Source: Nitrososphaeraceae archaeon (GTDB taxonomy: Archaea; Thermoproteota; Nitrososphaeria; Nitrososphaerales; Nitrososphaeraceae). From it: a stretch of DNA of 64,000 bases. Under the pieces are notes generated by a model, which saw only the letters and a list, made by a program, of their open reading frames with translations, did no database searches and was not told the origin of the DNA. Positions within the stretch are counted from its first letter, which is position 1, and every line of letters begins with the position of its first letter. The position numbers were made by a program, and so were the translations under genes. Shown here piece after piece: positions 48,001 through 55,521 of the stretch. The stretch covers positions 10,225 through 74,224 of the forward strand of contig DATGZA010000062.1 in the NCBI GenBank assembly GCA_035297365.1, read 5' to 3'.

Positions 48001-48527
48001 ATGAAACCTGCAGTAAAAAAAGCAAAACCCATTACTTTTAGGATAGAAAACAACATTTTAGAAACAATTAGAAAGAAAGGAGAAAGAGAACAACTAACTA
48101 ATAGTAATCTCATTAATAAAATTCTGGAAAGGTATGTTGAATGGGATGTGTACGAATCTAAAGTAGGCATGATGCCGATTCCAAAAGTTCTTTTAGACAA
48201 CCTTTTAATGGTCGAATCAAAGAAGAAGTTGTCGAGTTAGCTACTAAAGTTGGGAGATATGAACTAGAAGATGCTTCTTTATTTATGAATAAAAAGAATG
48301 ATTGGGAATCATTTCTGAGATGTTTGAAAAGAGAATGCAGAATACATCCATTGAAATTAATGATAAAAAAAGACAATAAAAAACATACTTTCATAATAAA
48401 ACACAATATTAGAGAGAATTGGTCACTTTATCATAAAACGATCTTTGAATTACTTGTTAAAGAAAATTATAAAAAACACGTGGAAATTAGATATAATAAT
48501 CGACTCATTTCGGGCCTGTTAACTTAA
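48001..48527 (+). pseudogene. Frameshifted RHH-type regulator with V4R-like C-terminal part, truncated by an IS end
   Basis: ITFRIENNILE...NLINKILERYVEWD (RHH-like); frameshift near 48205 joins the 48001 and 48285 ORFs; last stop lies inside the IS inverted repeat. Confidence 0.7.
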
Positions 48528-49229: not shown

Positions 49230-49240
49230 TTAGGCACTAG
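49230..49240 (+). promoter_or_regulatory. TTAGGCACTA operator-like motif upstream of a TATA box
   Basis: TTAGGCACTAG, 6 nt before TTTATATA (49247). Confidence 0.55.
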
Positions 49241-49287
49241 TTATACTTTATATATATGTTTTAATACTATAAATACAAAATTAAGAT

Positions 49288-49698
49288 ATGCCAAAAACAT
49301 TTGCCAATGGTCCAACACTGATGATTTCTGGTTCTTGTATTAATTTTAACAAAGAAAGAATTAGAATAATTGAGCATATAAACGAATTAGAATTGATATC
49401 ACACACAAAAACTGATTACGAAGTGTCATCAGAGGGCTCTTCTTTAGGATGGGACTTTTTTCGGATTTATTTTGAGCAAAATTTTGTCGAACGAATATCC
49501 GAAATTTTTCCAGAGATGCAAAAAGAAGTAGGAGTTACTTTAGAACAACGCTTCGTAATTTGGTTATCCAAGAGATTTAAAAAAAGAAAATTAGATTATT
49601 ATTTGAAACTAGAAGAGATACCTTATGAAAAAACATTAGGTTTTAGACTTGATCCAGAAAACTATCGTAATGAAGAAGATCTGGTGGATTTACGCTAG
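49288..49698 (+). CDS. Hypothetical protein
   Basis: 136-aa ORF with promoter elements upstream. Confidence 0.75.
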   Translation: MPKTFANGPTLMISGSCINFNKERIRIIEHINELELISHTKTDYEVSSEGSSLGWDFFRIYFEQNFVERISEIFPEMQKEVGVTLEQRFVIWLSKRFKKRKLDYYLKLEEIPYEKTLGFRLDPENYRNEEDLVDLR

Positions 49699-49757
49699 CT
49701 TTACTTTCTATTAGCTTTATTTTATTTGTAATTTTCATTATTTTCCACATTTATTGG

Positions 49758-49771
49758 TTAGGCACTATGAA
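49758..49771 (+). promoter_or_regulatory. TTAGGCACTATG operator-like motif
   Basis: Shares TTAGGCACTA with the 49230 site; lies upstream of TATA at 49787. Confidence 0.6.
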
Positions 49772-49815
49772 TAATCTGTCATATACTTTATAGGACAAGT
49801 AACATATTCAAGATT

Positions 49816-50130
49816 ATGAGTTATGGATACGAGATAGGTCCCGGCGATAATCAGGGCATATCAAATAAACAACTTGCATTGATATTTGGACTAGGTATAA
49901 CAGGGATTTTTCTAGTATTTGCTATTTTTATTTTTCCAATACAAAATCTTTTTCGCGAATCAGTTAGTGAGCAAGTTGTAATAGTTAGTAAAAGTGATGG
50001 TGAATGTGTTGTAAATAGTCAAGATCACCCAAGAAGCATTCCTAACTGCAATTATGATGTGGGTGATAAAGTACAAATCACATACAAATATGGCACTGCT
50101 ATGGTTGAGGATCATAAAAAAATAAATTGA
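49816..50130 (+). CDS. Single-TM protein with small OB-like extracellular domain
   Basis: TM helix, then ECVV...PNCNYDVGDKVQITY. Confidence 0.75.
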   Translation: MSYGYEIGPGDNQGISNKQLALIFGLGITGIFLVFAIFIFPIQNLFRESVSEQVVIVSKSDGECVVNSQDHPRSIPNCNYDVGDKVQITYKYGTAMVEDHKKIN

Positions 50131-50233
50131 GGCTGTGATGTGATTTTTTTCTACACTCTCTTTAAAAATCTAAATTTACCTCATGATGAAAATATAAGAT
50201 AACATTAAATCTTTGAACAAGCAATAATTTGAT

Positions 50234-50530
50234 ATGGTATTAGAAGATGAATTAACCAGAAAGTTACTGGATAAAATAATCCAGAATGTTATTTCATGTT
50301 TGCCCATGATAGAAAGAATATCTAAAGTACAAAATGAAAGAATCAAAGAAGAGATAGGAGTCGTTAACCAAAGAGACTTTATCATAGGGGCTATATGGTG
50401 TACGATATTAGAGAAATTCCTCGTTTCTTCATATCTTTATACTGGAAAAACTATTACCTATGAACAAGGTTTAGAAATAAGTGAATATACATTAGATAGA
50501 ATTTCAGAGTTATCACCTGAGATCAAATAA
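50234..50530 (+). CDS. Hypothetical helical protein
   Basis: 98-aa ORF, DFIIGAIW motif. Confidence 0.65.
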   Translation: MVLEDELTRKLLDKIIQNVISCLPMIERISKVQNERIKEEIGVVNQRDFIIGAIWCTILEKFLVSSYLYTGKTITYEQGLEISEYTLDRISELSPEIK

Positions 50531-50675
50531 ATAGATAATTATTAAATGTGACAGTACGGTAATACTTTATATCATGAGGTTCACAGAATTTATATTAAAA
50601 AAACCCAGATATTGTCTTAAATTAAGAATTAAAATTATGAAACCGAATTACCAAGCCAATAACAAATTTAGTGAC

Positions 50676-51578
50676 CTATAAACCACTCATAATTTGATTT
50701 ATTAGTTTTAGTGCATTTTTAGCGCTTTTTTCTTTATCTTTTATCTCCAACATGATATCTAAATCAACAGAAGTAATTGCGAGAACAAATTCCTTGAATT
50801 GTTTCATATCCAAAGTAGTAGAATGTTTTCCTTTTCTTTCATTTGGCTCCTGATTACTATAATCAATCATTATTATTCCATCTCTATGATTATACCATGT
50901 ATCGCTAGCCCTTTGCAAGGCATCAATTAATGACAAATTATCTCCAAAACACTGATGATGAAATGTGTCAAAAAGAATTGGTATGTCTGTATTCGATTGA
51001 ATTTCTATACAATCATTCAAATTATAAAGATGATCGTCGTTTTCGATTACCAACCTTTTTTTTACTTTTTCAGAAAGCAAATTCTTGTAATTTGATATGA
51101 ATTTTTTCTTTGAATCTTCTCTGTCTCCATAAACTCCTCCAACATGAATTTGAACTTTTGCAGAGGTATCAAGTCTCATTAAATCCAGAACGTCTGTATG
51201 ATACTCTAGTTCTTTAATACTATTATTCACAATATCTGGGTTTTTTGAATTTATGAGAACGAATTGGTCTGGATGCATAGATATTCTCATATCATTTTCT
51301 TTTATCAATCTGCCAATTTTTATAAAATCAGATCTAAAAGATTCTTTCCAGTCGAATTTACATATTGAATGAGATGCGAATGGAATTATATCTGAACTTA
51401 TTCTAAAAAACATGAGATTGTTTTCTATATTATACTTTAATATTTCAACAAGAGTGTCAAGATTATATTTTATGGATTGAATCAATCTTTCTTCAGTGTA
51501 AGAAGATAATCGAAATGTTGATACAGTTTTTTTTCCAATTGAATGATTTATACATGGATAACCGATCTTCATAAGCAA
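50676..51578 (-). CDS. uvsE: UV DNA damage endonuclease UvsE/UvdE
   Basis: KIGYPCIN, FFRISSDIIPFASH, RISMHPDQF, IHVGG, RLVIENDD, FDTFHH, GKHS, DIMLEIKDKE. Confidence 0.95.
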   Translation of the reverse strand: MLMKIGYPCINHSIGKKTVSTFRLSSYTEERLIQSIKYNLDTLVEILKYNIENNLMFFRISSDIIPFASHSICKFDWKESFRSDFIKIGRLIKENDMRISMHPDQFVLINSKNPDIVNNSIKELEYHTDVLDLMRLDTSAKVQIHVGGVYGDREDSKKKFISNYKNLLSEKVKKRLVIENDDHLYNLNDCIEIQSNTDIPILFDTFHHQCFGDNLSLIDALQRASDTWYNHRDGIIMIDYSNQEPNERKGKHSTTLDMKQFKEFVLAITSVDLDIMLEIKDKEKSAKNALKLINQIMSGL

Positions 51579-51781
51579 TTATTTAATACCATCGAGAAAA
51601 TTAAGATTTTTTTACTTATTGAAAGACTCAATTTATTGTAAATTAAAAATATCAGTTTTGATAAAAATGTAGACAAATTTACGCGGCTTTTTTTCTTCTG
51701 AATTTGTGAATCATGTTATAATTAATCGACTTTTTTTCTTAGTTGAGTACGAAAATTTTGGTGATTGTATTTTCTAACAAG

Positions 51782-51794
51782 TTGGCACTATGTT
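51782..51794 (+). promoter_or_regulatory. TTGGCACTATGT operator-like motif in the uvsE divergent spacer
   Basis: Matches the reverse complement of the repeat at 55254/55273; upstream of TTTATATA at 51815. Confidence 0.6.
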
Positions 51795-51841
51795 AATTTT
51801 TTTTATCTCTAGTCTTTATATAAATAGGAAAAAGATATGAT

Positions 51842-52411
51842 ATGTTAAAACAAAAAGGTTGCAATATGGTGATTTTTTATTGTACCGTTGCTGGCTTCAT
51901 TTCAGCTTGGGCAATATCTGGATTACTTGTAATTGTAGATATTGTTTCAAATACTCCTACAGGTACATTTTTTTCGGTCATAGGAGTATCAATTGGAATA
52001 GAAGATCCTGTTGTGGCTCTGTATATTGGTTTTAGATTACATGTGCTAACTGGAACTGCGGCTGGAAATATTTTTGGACAAGTCGCATCTTTTTGGAATA
52101 AAGTATTTTCCAACTGGCATCAGACGGGGGATACCGTTTGGAGTAATTCAGGGAATAGCATTGTGGATTATAATGTTCGTTCCTTTAGTTACTCTGGCAA
52201 TACAAGCCAAACTTGAATCTCTTGTGACCATGGCTACAAATGAGAATTTCAAAAACATTGCATTTCATTTTATTTTGAAGGATTGTATCCAGTGATCATA
52301 GGTGGATCATTGATAGTTCATATAGTGTAGGGAGTTTTACTGGGATTTATTGTTGGGAGAATGTCAGAACTTGATTTGTTTGTTCACGTGACTTTCAATA
52401 AAAATGTATGA
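51842..52411 (+). pseudogene. Disrupted multi-TM membrane protein with intramembrane His residues
   Basis: Hydrophobic reading continues across frameshifts near 52105 and 52270 and a TAG at 52328 (...LHVLTG.../...GIALWIIMFVPL.../...GGSLIVHIV*GVLLGFIVG). Confidence 0.75.
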
Positions 52412-52635
52412 TGTCTTTGACGAAATTACATACAATAAGATAGTAAATATGATAGCCATATCAAAAATAAGTACATTCAATAAAAAGTGATCCAAAAATG
52501 GATACATTAACAAAGTCATATACAGATGATCAGTATAAAAGTGGATTCATTTTTTGTTACTAAGGATTAAAAAATATATATAAAATATCTATTTGAAAAT
52601 ATTATATAGTGTTCAACTATTGGAGAGAAAAATAA

Positions 52636-54012
52636 TTGAAAAATAATCAAAATCAAGAGAAAAAATTACGTATTTTAGTAACAGGAGCAACTGGATTTAT
52701 AGGTTCAAGGCTTACTAGAAGATTAATTGCCTTGGGAAAATATCATATTCGTTGCATGACTAGAAATCCAGATGAAATATACCAAAAGATATTTGGGTTA
52801 AGTAAGAATATTATTGAGATAGTAAGGGTAGATGCTACCAAATATGAAGAAGTATTAAAAGCCTTAGAAGATGTTGATGTAGTTTTTTATTTAATTCATT
52901 CAATGGAAGGTACATCTTTAAAATGGAAAGAATTCTCGTACAAAGATAGATTAATAGCTGAAAATTTTGCTAAAGCTGCCTCAGAAAAAAGAGTAAAAAG
53001 GATAATATATTTAGGAGGTCTAATTAATGAAATTAATAATCTTTCCGAACATATGCGAAGCAGGAAGGAAGTTGGAGAAATTCTCAAAAAATCTACGGCC
53101 AAAGTTACAGTATTCCGTGCCGCAATAATTTTAGGAGCAGGAGGTGGATCATTTCAAATGCTAAAATATCTAGTAGAAAGACTTCCGATTATGGTGTGTC
53201 CCAAGTGGGTTCAGACCAGATCACAGCCAATAGCAGTTGATGATGTTGTAAACTATCTTGTGACTTGTTTGGAGGTTTCAGAAACACAAGGAAAAGACTT
53301 TGATATTGGAGGGCCAGAAATAGTCACCTATTTTGAGTTAATGAAAAGATATGCAAGCACGTTCAATAAATCATTAAGAATACTAGTTATACCTTTTTTA
53401 ACTCCGAGATTATCTTCTTACTGGATAGACCTTGTCACGCCAGTTCAGGCATCTTTAGCAAGACCATTGATTGATAGTTTGAAACATGAAGCCACAGTTA
53501 AGGATGAACAAATTAGAAAATTAATACAATTTGATCTTTCTACTATTGAGCAAGCCATAAATACGTCTAAAAAAGAATCGGAAATCAAATCAAAAATTCT
53601 AAAAATAAATGAAAAAAGTTCCATTTCATTGAACAACAAAATACTAATTATATCACTTTTATTGTTGGCAGCAATTGGTTCAACATATTATTTTTTAGAT
53701 ACACGACAAGATGTTTTTCGGCCATATTGGATCGTTTTAAGTTGTTTATGGTATTTTGGAATATTCTTTTCTATTTATTTTGTTAGATATGGCGCAAGGC
53801 TTGGATCTCTCATTGCAGGGATTTTAGGATGGATAACAATAACATTTTGGTTATTAGATAACATTCGCTTGGTTTATGACACATCTATTATAACCTCCTC
53901 ACCACCAGACCTTATAATGACTATTAGGAATTTTCTAGGGGGTATGATATCTATTTTGGTAATATTATCATCTCATAATGTCTTTCACAAGATAAGATTA
54001 TATAAAATATGA
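52636..54012 (+). CDS. Atypical SDR / NAD(P)-binding protein (YbjT-like) with C-terminal four-TM extension
   Basis: VTGATGFIG, YLIHSM, IIYLGGL, SEHMRSR, QPIAVDDV, TPRLSSYWIDLVTPV; hydrophobic C-terminus. Confidence 0.88.
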   Translation: MKNNQNQEKKLRILVTGATGFIGSRLTRRLIALGKYHIRCMTRNPDEIYQKIFGLSKNIIEIVRVDATKYEEVLKALEDVDVVFYLIHSMEGTSLKWKEFSYKDRLIAENFAKAASEKRVKRIIYLGGLINEINNLSEHMRSRKEVGEILKKSTAKVTVFRAAIILGAGGGSFQMLKYLVERLPIMVCPKWVQTRSQPIAVDDVVNYLVTCLEVSETQGKDFDIGGPEIVTYFELMKRYASTFNKSLRILVIPFLTPRLSSYWIDLVTPVQASLARPLIDSLKHEATVKDEQIRKLIQFDLSTIEQAINTSKKESEIKSKILKINEKSSISLNNKILIISLLLLAAIGSTYYFLDTRQDVFRPYWIVLSCLWYFGIFFSIYFVRYGARLGSLIAGILGWITITFWLLDNIRLVYDTSIITSSPPDLIMTIRNFLGGMISILVILSSHNVFHKIRLYKI

Positions 54013-54290
54013 TAATGTGATCCAACGATAAGAAAATTAAATCTCTTCAAAATATATTTTTTATTCTGGGCGTATTAAAATTACCATTATCCATATATTT
54101 ATTATAAAAATATTTTGTTAATATTACCGCATTTCAATAATTATATTAAATTAGATTAAATACTGTGAAAACCTGATTTATTTGAATAATAATTTTTATA
54201 GTGCTATTATATTATAACCAATACTAAATTTGAACCTAAAAACAAGAAATTAACATTTTAAAAAAATCAAATTGAATAATAGGGTTAAAA

Positions 54291-55166
54291 TTAAACATTT
54301 ATGTATTCATTAATATGGCGTATAAAATTACTTATTGATTCATTATGCAAAATACTAATTTTGTTCTGTTTGTTTTGATTTTCTATCGCCATGTCCCCGT
54401 TAAATGCAATAACCCCTGCTCCAGCAACTACTATGTTAGTTGGATATTTTTTATTTATTTCATTTATTAATCTTATCGCGGTATTTTTGTGTTCTGATAA
54501 TGTCATGCATATTATTACTAAATTCGGACGTTCTTCACTGACATATTCAACTATTGATTCGTTTGGAGCTGATGGCGATATATTATATACGTGATATTTT
54601 TTTTCTAATAATAGCGATTCAAGTATCTCGGACCCAATCTTGTGTATTTCTCCCTCCGGAGTACATAAAATGACCTTTATCGGCTTTTTCTTTTCTGTAT
54701 CCAAACTATGAAACTTGTTATTTAATATACTTATTAGGTTCGAAGCTGCGTTACTACAAGCGTGTTCCGTGGCAACATCTAATTCTCCTTTCTCCCACAG
54801 GTTCCCTACCTTTTGCAATACAGGAATTAGAATAAATTCGTAAAAATCAATTAGATCAATCTTTTTCGTAGAGCTAGAATAAATGTTCAATACTTCATTT
54901 ATATCATAATTAATCAGGGCTTCAAATAATCGGTCTTGAAATATCTTTTCTGAATCTTTATCTCTTGCTTTATCACTAAATTTTCCAAAAAATGATATTA
55001 CGTTTTCTGTTTTGCGGTATTCTTCCGGAATATCATCCATGACTAATTTAGAAATATTTCCTAAATATTTGACTGTTATTTGTTTAGGTTTTTTTTCGGT
55101 CCAGACATTTTTTACTAAATAAGCATATGAATTATTTTTTAATTTTTTTACTCTGATATAGACCAT
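54291..55166 (-). CDS. CarH/LitR-like cobalamin-binding regulator with non-MerR N-terminal domain
   Basis: GNLWEKGELDVATEH (W-x9-EH, AdoCbl cap) and PEGEIHKIG (ExHxxG base-off His); basic beta-rich N-terminus. Confidence 0.85.
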   Translation of the reverse strand: MVYIRVKKLKNNSYAYLVKNVWTEKKPKQITVKYLGNISKLVMDDIPEEYRKTENVISFFGKFSDKARDKDSEKIFQDRLFEALINYDINEVLNIYSSSTKKIDLIDFYEFILIPVLQKVGNLWEKGELDVATEHACSNAASNLISILNNKFHSLDTEKKKPIKVILCTPEGEIHKIGSEILESLLLEKKYHVYNISPSAPNESIVEYVSEERPNLVIICMTLSEHKNTAIRLINEINKKYPTNIVVAGAGVIAFNGDMAIENQNKQNKISILHNESISNFIRHINEYINV

Positions 55167-55230
55167 TTTTAGTCACCGCCGTACAAGTTATACATAGAGA
55201 TAGTCAAGTTAATAGAATTTATCATAATTG

Positions 55231-55287
55231 TATTTAGTGTTCATGTCTATTTATACATAGTGCTAAATCTGTTACATAGTGCTAAAT
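55231..55287 (-). promoter_or_regulatory. Tandem operator-like direct repeats upstream of the B12-binding regulator
   Basis: TACATAGTGCTAAAT at 55254-55268 and 55273-55287 (identical); variant TAGTGTTCA at 55235-55243. Confidence 0.7.
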
Positions 55288-55447: not shown

Positions 55448-55521
55448 TGGGGTCGGCCGGATTTGAACCGGCGGTCTCCAGCGCCCGAGGCTGGAATCAT
55501 GCCAAACTAGACCACAACCCC
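55448..55521 (-). tRNA. tRNA-Pro(CGG)
   Basis: Acceptor stem GGGGTTG/CGACCCC, anticodon arm CCAGC-CT-CGG-GC-GCTGG, T arm GCCGGTTCAAATCCGGC; no intron. Confidence 0.95.

Follow-up and report, generated by a model that had tools for sequence, protein, structure and literature searches.

The open reading frame (ORF) at positions 54291–55166 of the window, the 64,000-nucleotide stretch of a Nitrososphaeraceae genome analysed here (C62:10225–74224 of genome G000), probably encodes a transcription factor of ammonia-oxidizing archaea. In the proposed architecture, an N-terminal β domain would read an 11–12-bp site and is followed by a CarH-type cobalamin module, with the target promoters described below. 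This proposal is carried by direct observations: a promoter motif, its position and conservation, its association with the N-terminal domain, and a module that is CarH-like in sequence and fold. We also lean, with considerable reserve, towards a broader reading. No light-sensing transcription circuit would have been seen before in ammonia-oxidizing archaea, and no counterpart of CarH in any archaeon; the circuit would be built on an unrecognised β-sheet fold of ∼45 residues that reads an 11-bp site and is reused by other uncultured archaea with different sensors. Visible or near-UV light would turn on genes for membrane-associated protection, joined by those for photolyase, UvdE or a pyrimidine-dimer glycosylase according to lineage. 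The source genome (2.52 Mb, 30.5% G+C, 110 contigs, 97.1% complete) encodes an archaeal AmoA. Its closest public relatives are titled Nitrososphaeraceae or Nitrososphaerales metagenome-assembled genomes (MAGs), and the window DNA is present in soil and wetland metagenomes.

The initial annotation had recognised two cobalamin-photoreceptor signatures in this ORF, and both are present: W124-x9-E134-H135 in a four-helix bundle and E173-x-H175-x-x-G178 in a Rossmann-type domain. Pfam assigns B12-binding_2 (PF02607) to residues 78–148 (E = 1.1e-12) and B12-binding (PF02310) to residues 164–259 (E = 2.4e-9). W124, E134, H135, E173 and H175 are invariant across 15 aligned orthologs (34–92% identity), and G178 is present in the window protein. 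The AlphaFold model (predicted local distance difference test, pLDDT, 84.6) begins with three long β-strands, followed by a helical linker, a bundle of helices and a Rossmann domain. In a Foldseek search of the PDB, the top places all go to light-sensing B12 domains, namely the Chloracidobacterium MerR-family B12 domain (8jbs), a photocobilin (8j2w) and CarH of Thermus thermophilus (TtCarH, 5c8a). When the bundle alone is searched against PDB sequences, only TtCarH and 8jbs are found at E<0.01, one more row being Cullin-3 (E = 0.74), and the W and EH of the bundle align with the W and EH of TtCarH. The module is thus, in sequence and predicted fold, of the photoreceptor type. Family members carry the automatic names "cobalamin B12-binding domain-containing protein", "MtbC1" and "MerR family, light-induced".

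All 24 genomes of the genus contain a match to the regulator at E = 0.001 or better, which in 21 reaches 1e-40 or better, and G036, a member of another family, has one too. Across 121 genomes of the order that are at least 90% complete, where a genome was scored as regulator-positive at E = 1e-20 or better, it is found in 39, with a patchy distribution by family. Homologs also occur in records titled Nitrosopumilus sp. b1 and Nitrososphaera and Nitrosocosmicus MAGs. A wider sample of 80 regulator loci covers Nitrososphaeraceae (including Nitrososphaera, Nitrosocosmicus and Nitrosopolaris) and Nitrosopumilaceae (including Nitrosopumilus sp. b1), and its neighbouring genes were screened with 14 chosen query proteins. 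A high-G+C relative, protein P0216 (294 aa), has the same β domain and B12 module; judging by its sequence, the architecture is not confined to low-G+C ammonia oxidizers.

The promoter of the regulator gene contains two identical 15-mers (ATTTAGCACTATGTA on the minus strand), as first described. The same core precedes three neighbouring genes, as TTAGGCACTAG at 49230, TTAGGCACTATG at 49758 and TTGGCACTATGT at 51782, and all three copies are oriented towards the downstream gene, also in agreement with the first description. It had been estimated that about one copy of the core would be expected per 64 kb, against four seen. This excess holds within the window, where GCACTATG occurs four times versus 0.72 expected and 2 of 100 shuffles reach four. 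The genome as a whole (2.52 Mb) has 18 copies versus 17 of the reversed control, and a stretch of 5.5 kb holds four of the 18. An extended motif, KTWRGCACTAK, was derived later, from other genomes; it has five copies in the window, with 0.36 expected and none of 100 shuffles reaching five, and 23 in the whole genome (16 for the control). A scan of G000 identified 10 promoter-oriented instances of the motif versus 0–4 for each of eight permuted patterns, and 12 instances at a distance of 48–53 nt versus about 3–4 in the other distance bins. The promoter-like instances in the window are those of the regulator (two sites), p104(-p98), the p200 pseudogene and p136 (Table 1). A variant, TAGTGTTCA, which the initial annotation had treated as meaningful, does occur at 52607 and 55235, but was rejected: 13 of 100 shuffles give at least two copies, and neither copy is kept in the two closest relatives.

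The shared operator motif is real and conserved in position across Nitrososphaeraceae and Nitrosopumilaceae. Of 20 regions upstream of the regulator, taken from the genus and one other family, 19 contain it, mostly as a tandem pair beside the TATA box. The pair typically reads TTAGCACTA-N8-10-TTAGGCACTA immediately in front of the TATA box, with differing flanks, and the proximal site abuts the TATA box as it does in the window. Among the wider loci, the motif lies within 130 nt of the regulator in 38 of 75; 26 of the 37 regulators without it directly follow p200 or the gene of a short-chain dehydrogenase/reductase (SDR) on the same strand. The logo from 87 distinct sites reads r-k-T-w-R-G-C-A-C-T-A-k; all 87 have T at −2 and G/T at +7, positions that played no part in site selection. 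The motif ends about 50 nt before the ATG (distances cluster at 48–52 nt), and the TATA box starts about 20 nt after it. In 72 promoters without an exact second site, a position weight matrix score >4 is found at offset +19/+20 in 14, compared to 0 or 1 at any other offset. The sites are therefore generally arranged as tandem direct repeats spaced by about two helical turns, the proximal copy lying on the B recognition element (BRE) and TATA box.

The motif also follows the distribution of the regulator. In the 39 regulator-positive genomes, tandem GCACTA-N10-16-GCACTA pairs number 93 versus 25 for the reversed control, with at least one in 33 of the 39; in the 82 regulator-negative genomes there are 62 versus 95, and 31 of the 82 have one. 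Counts of the motif combined with a TATA box (57 versus 37 for the control in five regulator-positive genomes, 14 versus 26 in five negative ones) are noisy and confounded by G+C.

The N-terminal domain is basic (10 K/R versus 3 D/E in 45 residues), with strands predicted at residues 2–9, 12–22 and 27–37 (pLDDT about 90). R5, K7, K10, Y14, Y16, W22, Q29, Y34, L35 and G36 are invariant in 15 orthologs. In this part of the protein the regulator is not a CarH of the MerR type: no MerR-type winged helix-turn-helix is matched in Pfam, and residues 1–37 are predicted as β-strands. The domain has no match of any kind in Pfam and no sequence match in the PDB. Fold searches gave no convincing relative (best Foldseek E = 0.67; best VIA-align Z = 4.4, with ribosomal proteins), and look-alikes of residues 1–65 in the ESM Atlas (best score 0.77) fall in unnamed clusters only. 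We therefore regard the predicted structure as a candidate new DNA-binding fold, with no family assignable from fold searches.

A profile of the N-terminal 65 residues identifies 762 clusters, including a class of ∼165–215-aa proteins with a different, Pfam-less C-terminal part. From 80 metagenome loci with ∼175-aa proteins of this kind, 34 distinct upstream regions were evaluated. The motif core T[AT]GGCAC, in either orientation, lies within 21 nt of the ATG in 24 of the 34, mostly between the TATA box and the start codon, and its density in these regions is 5.74 per kb versus 0.31 per kb in the remaining parts of the loci. The core thus occurs at promoters of proteins that share the N-terminal domain alone, and this is the strongest indication that the domain is, very probably, the DNA reader. 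The ∼165–215-aa family appears to be autoregulated via the same core. Its members (P0208, P0211, P0226, P0229, P0234, P0236, P0241 and P0250; loci L258–L294) belong to uncultured organisms with archaeal-type promoters.

Conservation in orthologous promoters, which the initial annotation had named as a check, is found for the regulator, p104, p200, p107 and a 74-aa gene, but not for p136, uvdE or the SDR. For p200, a polytopic membrane protein that is a pseudogene in the window, the motif precedes the gene in 26 of the 27 promoters evaluated in the genus and in 32 of 40 of the wider loci, ending 48–52 nt before the ATG; one p200 subclass has a second copy at 29–30 nt, abutting the TATA box. In promoters of the p104 family, the exact motif is found at 43–51 nt in 15 of 28 evaluated in the genus, and a one-mismatch form (G[TC]CACTA) occupies the same place in 7 more. 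The motif precedes p107 (101–118 aa, no Pfam match) in 14 of 14 wider loci and a 74-aa ORF of a transmembrane (TM) protein in 5 of 5. The p107 gene of G000 is located on contig C7, with the motif 57–58 nt upstream. The SDR is the most conserved neighbour of the regulator, which it adjoins in 39 of 80 loci. Its own promoter had been counted among the targets, but none of 27 SDR upstream regions contains the motif. Instead, the SDR usually lies behind p107 or p200 on the same strand, the common order on one strand being p107, SDR, p200 and regulator, and in the window it is perhaps under the motif-bearing promoter of the p200 pseudogene. The p200 gene itself adjoins the regulator in 41 of the 80 loci.

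Genes for the repair of UV damage recur near the regulator. The synteny with photolyase or uvsE/uvdE that had been suggested as a check is seen within 6 kb in 4 and 6 of the 80 loci, respectively. In G036, a photolyase gene (PF03441, E = 3.8e-77; PF00875, E = 7.8e-36) starts 2 nt behind the regulator and is followed by a nitroreductase gene, and the motif also stands at 49 and 50 nt from the ATG in two more divergent promoters close by. Locus L182 also has photolyase behind the regulator, in operon arrangement as in G036, and two of the four photolyase promoters contain the motif. In L233 (Nitrosopumilaceae), a motif-led run of five same-strand genes includes the regulator and a pyrimidine-dimer DNA glycosylase (Pyr_excise, PF03013, E = 3.1e-27). 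In L178, p107 has the motif 50 nt upstream and is followed after 60 nt by uvdE, this operon position being the sole link of uvdE to the motif. An amine-oxidase/CrtI-family flavoprotein gene, present in 4 of 25 genus genomes and absent from G000, is preceded by the motif at 53 nt in L182 and at 49 nt in L234.

In the window itself, uvdE does not behave as a target. The initial annotation had placed it under the motif through the shared spacer, but the site at 51782 points away from uvdE, ∼204 bp from its start, and faces the other gene. No motif is oriented towards uvdE in 23 upstream rows of the genus or in 6 from the wider loci, so that its promoter is not supported as a direct target, and no photolyase was detected in G000 with PF00875. 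Thus, of the light/UV regulon originally proposed, the conserved motif and the UV-repair neighbours (G036, L182, L233 and L178) stand, while uvdE under the motif in G000 does not; by gene content and order, the light/UV link is supported at the level of the family. The uvdE promoters across the genus (51579–51700 in the window; L040–L060) share another conserved stretch, roughly TTCATTTAATTCTGAAATCATTTTATATTT, which includes the TATA box. This stretch bears no relation to the GCACTA motif and may represent a distinct regulatory element.

We propose the following mechanism. The β domain would read the asymmetric 11–12-bp sequence (R)KTWRGCACTAK at a strong distal site that ends ∼50 nt upstream of the start codon and ∼20 nt upstream of the TATA box, often together with a second site 17–21 bp downstream on the BRE/TATA. 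In the dark, the adenosylcobalamin-bound protein would oligomerise as CarH does, and the oligomer would set at least two DNA readers on the tandem direct repeats, 17–21 bp apart, blocking access of TBP and TFB. Light would cleave the Co–C bond, the oligomer would dissociate and the promoters would open. In relatives, the p107-SDR and p200-regulator units would be driven by the same circuit, joined in some lineages by photolyase, UvdE or the pyrimidine-dimer glycosylase. Cobalamin binding, the response to light, oligomerisation and repression rather than activation are all drawn from the analogy with CarH. A homodimer prediction for residues 76–291 (score 0.41 versus a mark of 0.42, controls 0.00) was not used as evidence.

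Several points weigh against this proposal. The distal site lies upstream of the BRE/TATA, so repression is not the sole reading of the promoter layout. The residue beside the Trp of the bundle is Glu in the window protein and Glu, Ala or Val in the family, compared to His132 in TtCarH. Given this missing His, the photochemistry after Co–C cleavage may differ from that of TtCarH. The NCBIfam CarH model (NF052513) scores 43.2 bits versus a cut-off of 400, with the B12 module alone aligning, and the corrinoid-protein model TIGR02370 scores slightly higher (53 bits versus a cut-off of 215.3). Cobalamin binding, light response and DNA binding are each predictions for the regulator. The two closest relatives (G017 and G014) have intergenic DNA ∼90% identical to that of G000, and these three genomes are therefore too alike for footprinting to be informative. 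Within this clade, moreover, the core is altered by a substitution at two of the three target sites, each time in one close relative (p104 in G017, C to G; p124 in G014, C to A). The counts across genomes come from related, phylogenetically non-independent genomes, and G+C differs between the groups compared. Finally, some regulator-negative genomes (among them G032, G038, G088, G094 and G096) have several tandem GCACTA pairs and no control matches; such genomes may hold a divergent or differently built reader of the motif.

The most serious competing explanation, which we consider unlikely but worth weighing, is that the same factor and motif work by activation. The protein would recruit TBP and TFB from upstream of the BRE/TATA, light would alter its activity, and the proximal site would serve negative autoregulation only. 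The distal site is indeed strict in position and orientation, ∼20 nt upstream of the TATA box, and archaeal activators usually bind upstream of the BRE/TATA. Of the 72 promoters that lack an exact second site, 58 are also without a strong proximal one. However, a degenerate second site is enriched at +19/+20, exact proximal sites overlap the BRE/TATA in 17 of 89 promoters, and the site in the ∼175-aa relatives lies between the TATA box and the ATG, which is the position of a repressor. Activation of photolyase in the dark would also be biologically implausible.

Somewhat less probable still is a sensor of cobalamin availability, in which the corrinoid-bound protein would switch genes according to B12 supply rather than light, as bacterial cobalamin riboswitches do. 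Such a role would agree with the comparable scores of corrinoid-protein and CarH models, with the missing His beside the Trp, and with the fact that ammonia-oxidizing archaea synthesise cobalamin. However, the motif-bearing and neighbouring genes that could be identified include no gene for cobalamin synthesis, salvage or transport and none for a B12-dependent enzyme. W-x9-EH is invariant, and all PDB sequence matches of the bundle at E<0.01 are photoreceptors. The recurrent identifiable neighbours are instead three unrelated enzymes of UV-damage repair, and their recurrence beside one regulator favours a light or UV signal over B12 supply.

It is very unlikely that the motif is read by another protein, such as p107, a small zinc-ribbon protein or a specialised TFB, with the B12 protein acting only as a partner, as AerR does with CrtJ. 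The genes for p107 and small zinc-ribbon proteins are conserved in the clusters and themselves carry the motif, DNA binding by the N-terminal domain is a prediction, and its fold matches no known DNA binder. This scenario is at odds with the motif core at 24 of 34 promoters of relatives that share the N-terminal domain alone, in other organisms. The domain is, in addition, strongly basic and occupies the position of the MerR domain in CarH. With the query used, p107 was not found in G036, a 99% complete genome that contains the motif as well as the regulator, and this supports the N-terminal domain as the reader. That the repeats and shared cores are functionless products of chance or local duplication can practically be dismissed: short AT-rich words are frequent at 30.5% G+C, TAGTGTTCA is at chance level and the p136 site is limited to three close genomes, but no shuffle of 100 reaches the observed count of the extended motif, and position and sequence are kept across two archaeal families with diverging flanks, comparative data that already contradict chance.

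Table 1. Coordinates of the regulator, the motif copies and the neighbouring genes in the window.
Feature	Positions	Strand	Basis or remark
Regulator gene, 291 aa: N-terminal β domain, CarH-type four-helix bundle and Rossmann B12-binding domain	54291–55166	−	ORF; Pfam PF02607 and PF02310; AlphaFold
N-terminal basic three-stranded β-sheet domain (∼45 residues), proposed DNA reader	55032–55166	−	AlphaFold; composition; motif association
Four-helix bundle with W124-x9-E134-H135	54708–54941	−	Bundle sequence search of the PDB; ortholog alignment
Rossmann-type B12-binding domain with E173-x-H175-x-x-G178	54294–54680	−	Pfam PF02310; ortholog alignment
Distal operator repeat of the regulator's own promoter	55273–55287	−	Exact 15-mer; kept in G017 and G014, flanks diverging
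Proximal operator repeat, predicted to cover the BRE position	55254–55268	−	Exact 15-mer; last 2 nt overlap TATA box TATAAATA (55248–55255, minus strand)
Operator site of the p104 promoter	49758–49768	+	Motif ends 48 nt before ATG
p104 (one-TM protein, 49816–50130) and p98 (50234–50530), conserved pair	49816–50530	+	ORFs; no Pfam match
Operator site of the p124/p200 promoter	51781–51791	+	Motif ends 51 nt before ATG
Pseudogene of polytopic membrane protein p200 (read as a 124-aa ORF)	51842–52400	+	Two frameshifts and an in-frame stop versus intact 181–188-aa orthologs
SDR-membrane fusion: NmrA/YbjT-like NAD(P)-binding domain plus C-terminal membrane domain	52636–54012	+	Pfam
Motif copy upstream of p136, lineage-specific	49230–49240	+	Found in G000, G017 and G014 only
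p136	49288–49698	+	ORF; true start probably 49321
UvdE UV-damage endonuclease	50676–51578	−	Pfam PF03851, E = 9.3e-59, 199.3 bits versus cut-off 24, profile 18–271 of 275

The remaining genes around the regulator are mostly uncharacterised (Table 1). The p104-p98 pair adjoins a regulator in L216 too, RNA contigs span both genes, and the two likely form one transcription unit. Metatranscriptome contigs cover p136, p104, p98, the p124 region, the SDR and the regulator (the last from a relative). They do not cover uvdE, and such contigs cannot show absence, starts or levels. The motif is missing upstream of p136 orthologs with 52–59% identity in all 16 rows (15 genomes) where a start was found; 7 further loci gave no start. 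Distant p136 orthologs start at the codon matching M12, at 49321 in the window, which is probably the true start. RNA contigs of four runs from three studies begin at 49292–49310, which fits this start, as a weak hint given that these are contigs only. Four loci (L075, L078, L080 and L083) have a reverse-oriented motif ∼115–125 nt upstream of distant p136 orthologs, with a TATA-like box next to it and no conserved ORF; it could mark a small RNA or a very short ORF. Intact p200 orthologs have a weak match to DUF6789, below the cut-off. The pattern of breaks in p200 is shared by G017 and G014, and G017 has a second, intact p200 beside a second regulator and SDR. The uvdE-p104-p136 region is found on two G017 contigs (C1 and C11) with identical scores, probably reflecting redundancy of the assembly.

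On contig C11 of G000, two motif sites each are associated with a 59-aa zinc-ribbon ORF and a 66-aa membrane ORF. Small Cys-rich zinc-ribbon-like proteins (59–69 aa) recur directly upstream of the regulator in Nitrosopumilaceae or behind motif-bearing promoters, for example at L234 5814–5999, L233 5805–6014, L036 12714–12905 and G000 C11:57390. A tRNA-Pro(CGG) gene (55448–55521, minus strand) is located 160 nt upstream of the distal operator repeat. A 79-aa ORF (48001–48240, plus strand) has a weak CopG-antitoxin-like match below the cut-off (E = 0.0062). A promoter and terminator scan of 54000–54320 used a sigma-70 model, which is not applicable to archaea.

The inhibition of archaeal ammonia oxidation by light is well documented, and the proposed circuit, if true, would provide a molecular handle on this long-known light sensitivity of archaeal nitrification. 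It offers a concrete sensor candidate, together with the sequence of its operator, the architecture of the promoters and a small number of targets. The N-terminal domain, as a candidate new DNA-binding fold with a known target site, could be of use to structural biology and, being compact, as a part in archaeal genetics or optogenetics. The four-gene module of p107, SDR-membrane fusion, p200 and regulator is widespread in soil Nitrososphaeraceae, and the regulator gives it a function-by-association lead. Full-text literature searches, which covered articles without their supplements, returned no archaeal CarH-like regulator and no light sensor or light-responsive regulator in ammonia-oxidizing archaea. 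The portions of PMC9304148, PMC8156234 and PMC8717448 that were covered make no mention of a photoreceptor in these organisms. B12-binding domains join many output domains in bacteria and archaea, according to a portion of PMC8717448. The B12 photoreceptor transcription factor is an established type, to which the regulator would add a candidate new DNA-binding domain, a new domain of life and a defined operator.

Among known systems, the corrinoid proteins of methyltransferases (MtbC, MtaC and MttC) have the same Pfam domains and comparable hidden Markov model scores. However, an N-terminal basic domain and an autoregulatory operator are not among their features, and the regulator misses their family cut-off, as given above. 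No methyltransferase partner was found near the regulator in the 80 neighbourhoods with the 14 query proteins alone. AerR/PpaA, the B12-binding antirepressors of CrtJ/PpsR (7te2), likewise use a light-responsive B12 module in transcription and give a weak profile match in the PDB (E = 1.4e-5), but AerR lacks a DNA-binding domain and acts via a partner, whereas the regulator has its own candidate DNA reader. The best matches of the C-terminal module by sequence profile and fold are the MerR-family B12 domain of Chloracidobacterium thermophilum (8jbs/8jbt) and the photocobilins (8j2w–8j2y), light-sensing B12 domains with various outputs, none of which has the β domain of the regulator.

The closest comparison is with CarH/LitR, the MerR-family adenosylcobalamin photoreceptor repressors of T. 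thermophilus, Myxococcus xanthus and Bacillus megaterium (5c8a, 5c8d and 5c8e). By sequence, the regulator lacks two of their defining features, the MerR domain and a score above the curated cut-off, and carries both signatures of the photoreceptor module. A predicted three-stranded β domain of ∼45 residues replaces the MerR winged helix, the promoter context is that of archaeal TATA/BRE elements, and the His beside the Trp is absent. The operator repeats of CarH are 11 bp, compared to a period of 17–21 bp here, and the core targets are uncharacterised membrane proteins and an SDR rather than carotenoid genes. The two systems are alike in the two-domain B12 module with W-x9-EH and (E/D)xHxxG, and in an N-terminal DNA-binding domain, which is predicted for the regulator. 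Both appear to combine autoregulation with a tandem-direct-repeat operator that overlaps core promoter elements, an analogy of layout given the archaeal promoter, and both have photolyase and an amine-oxidase/CrtI-family flavoprotein among their neighbours or targets.

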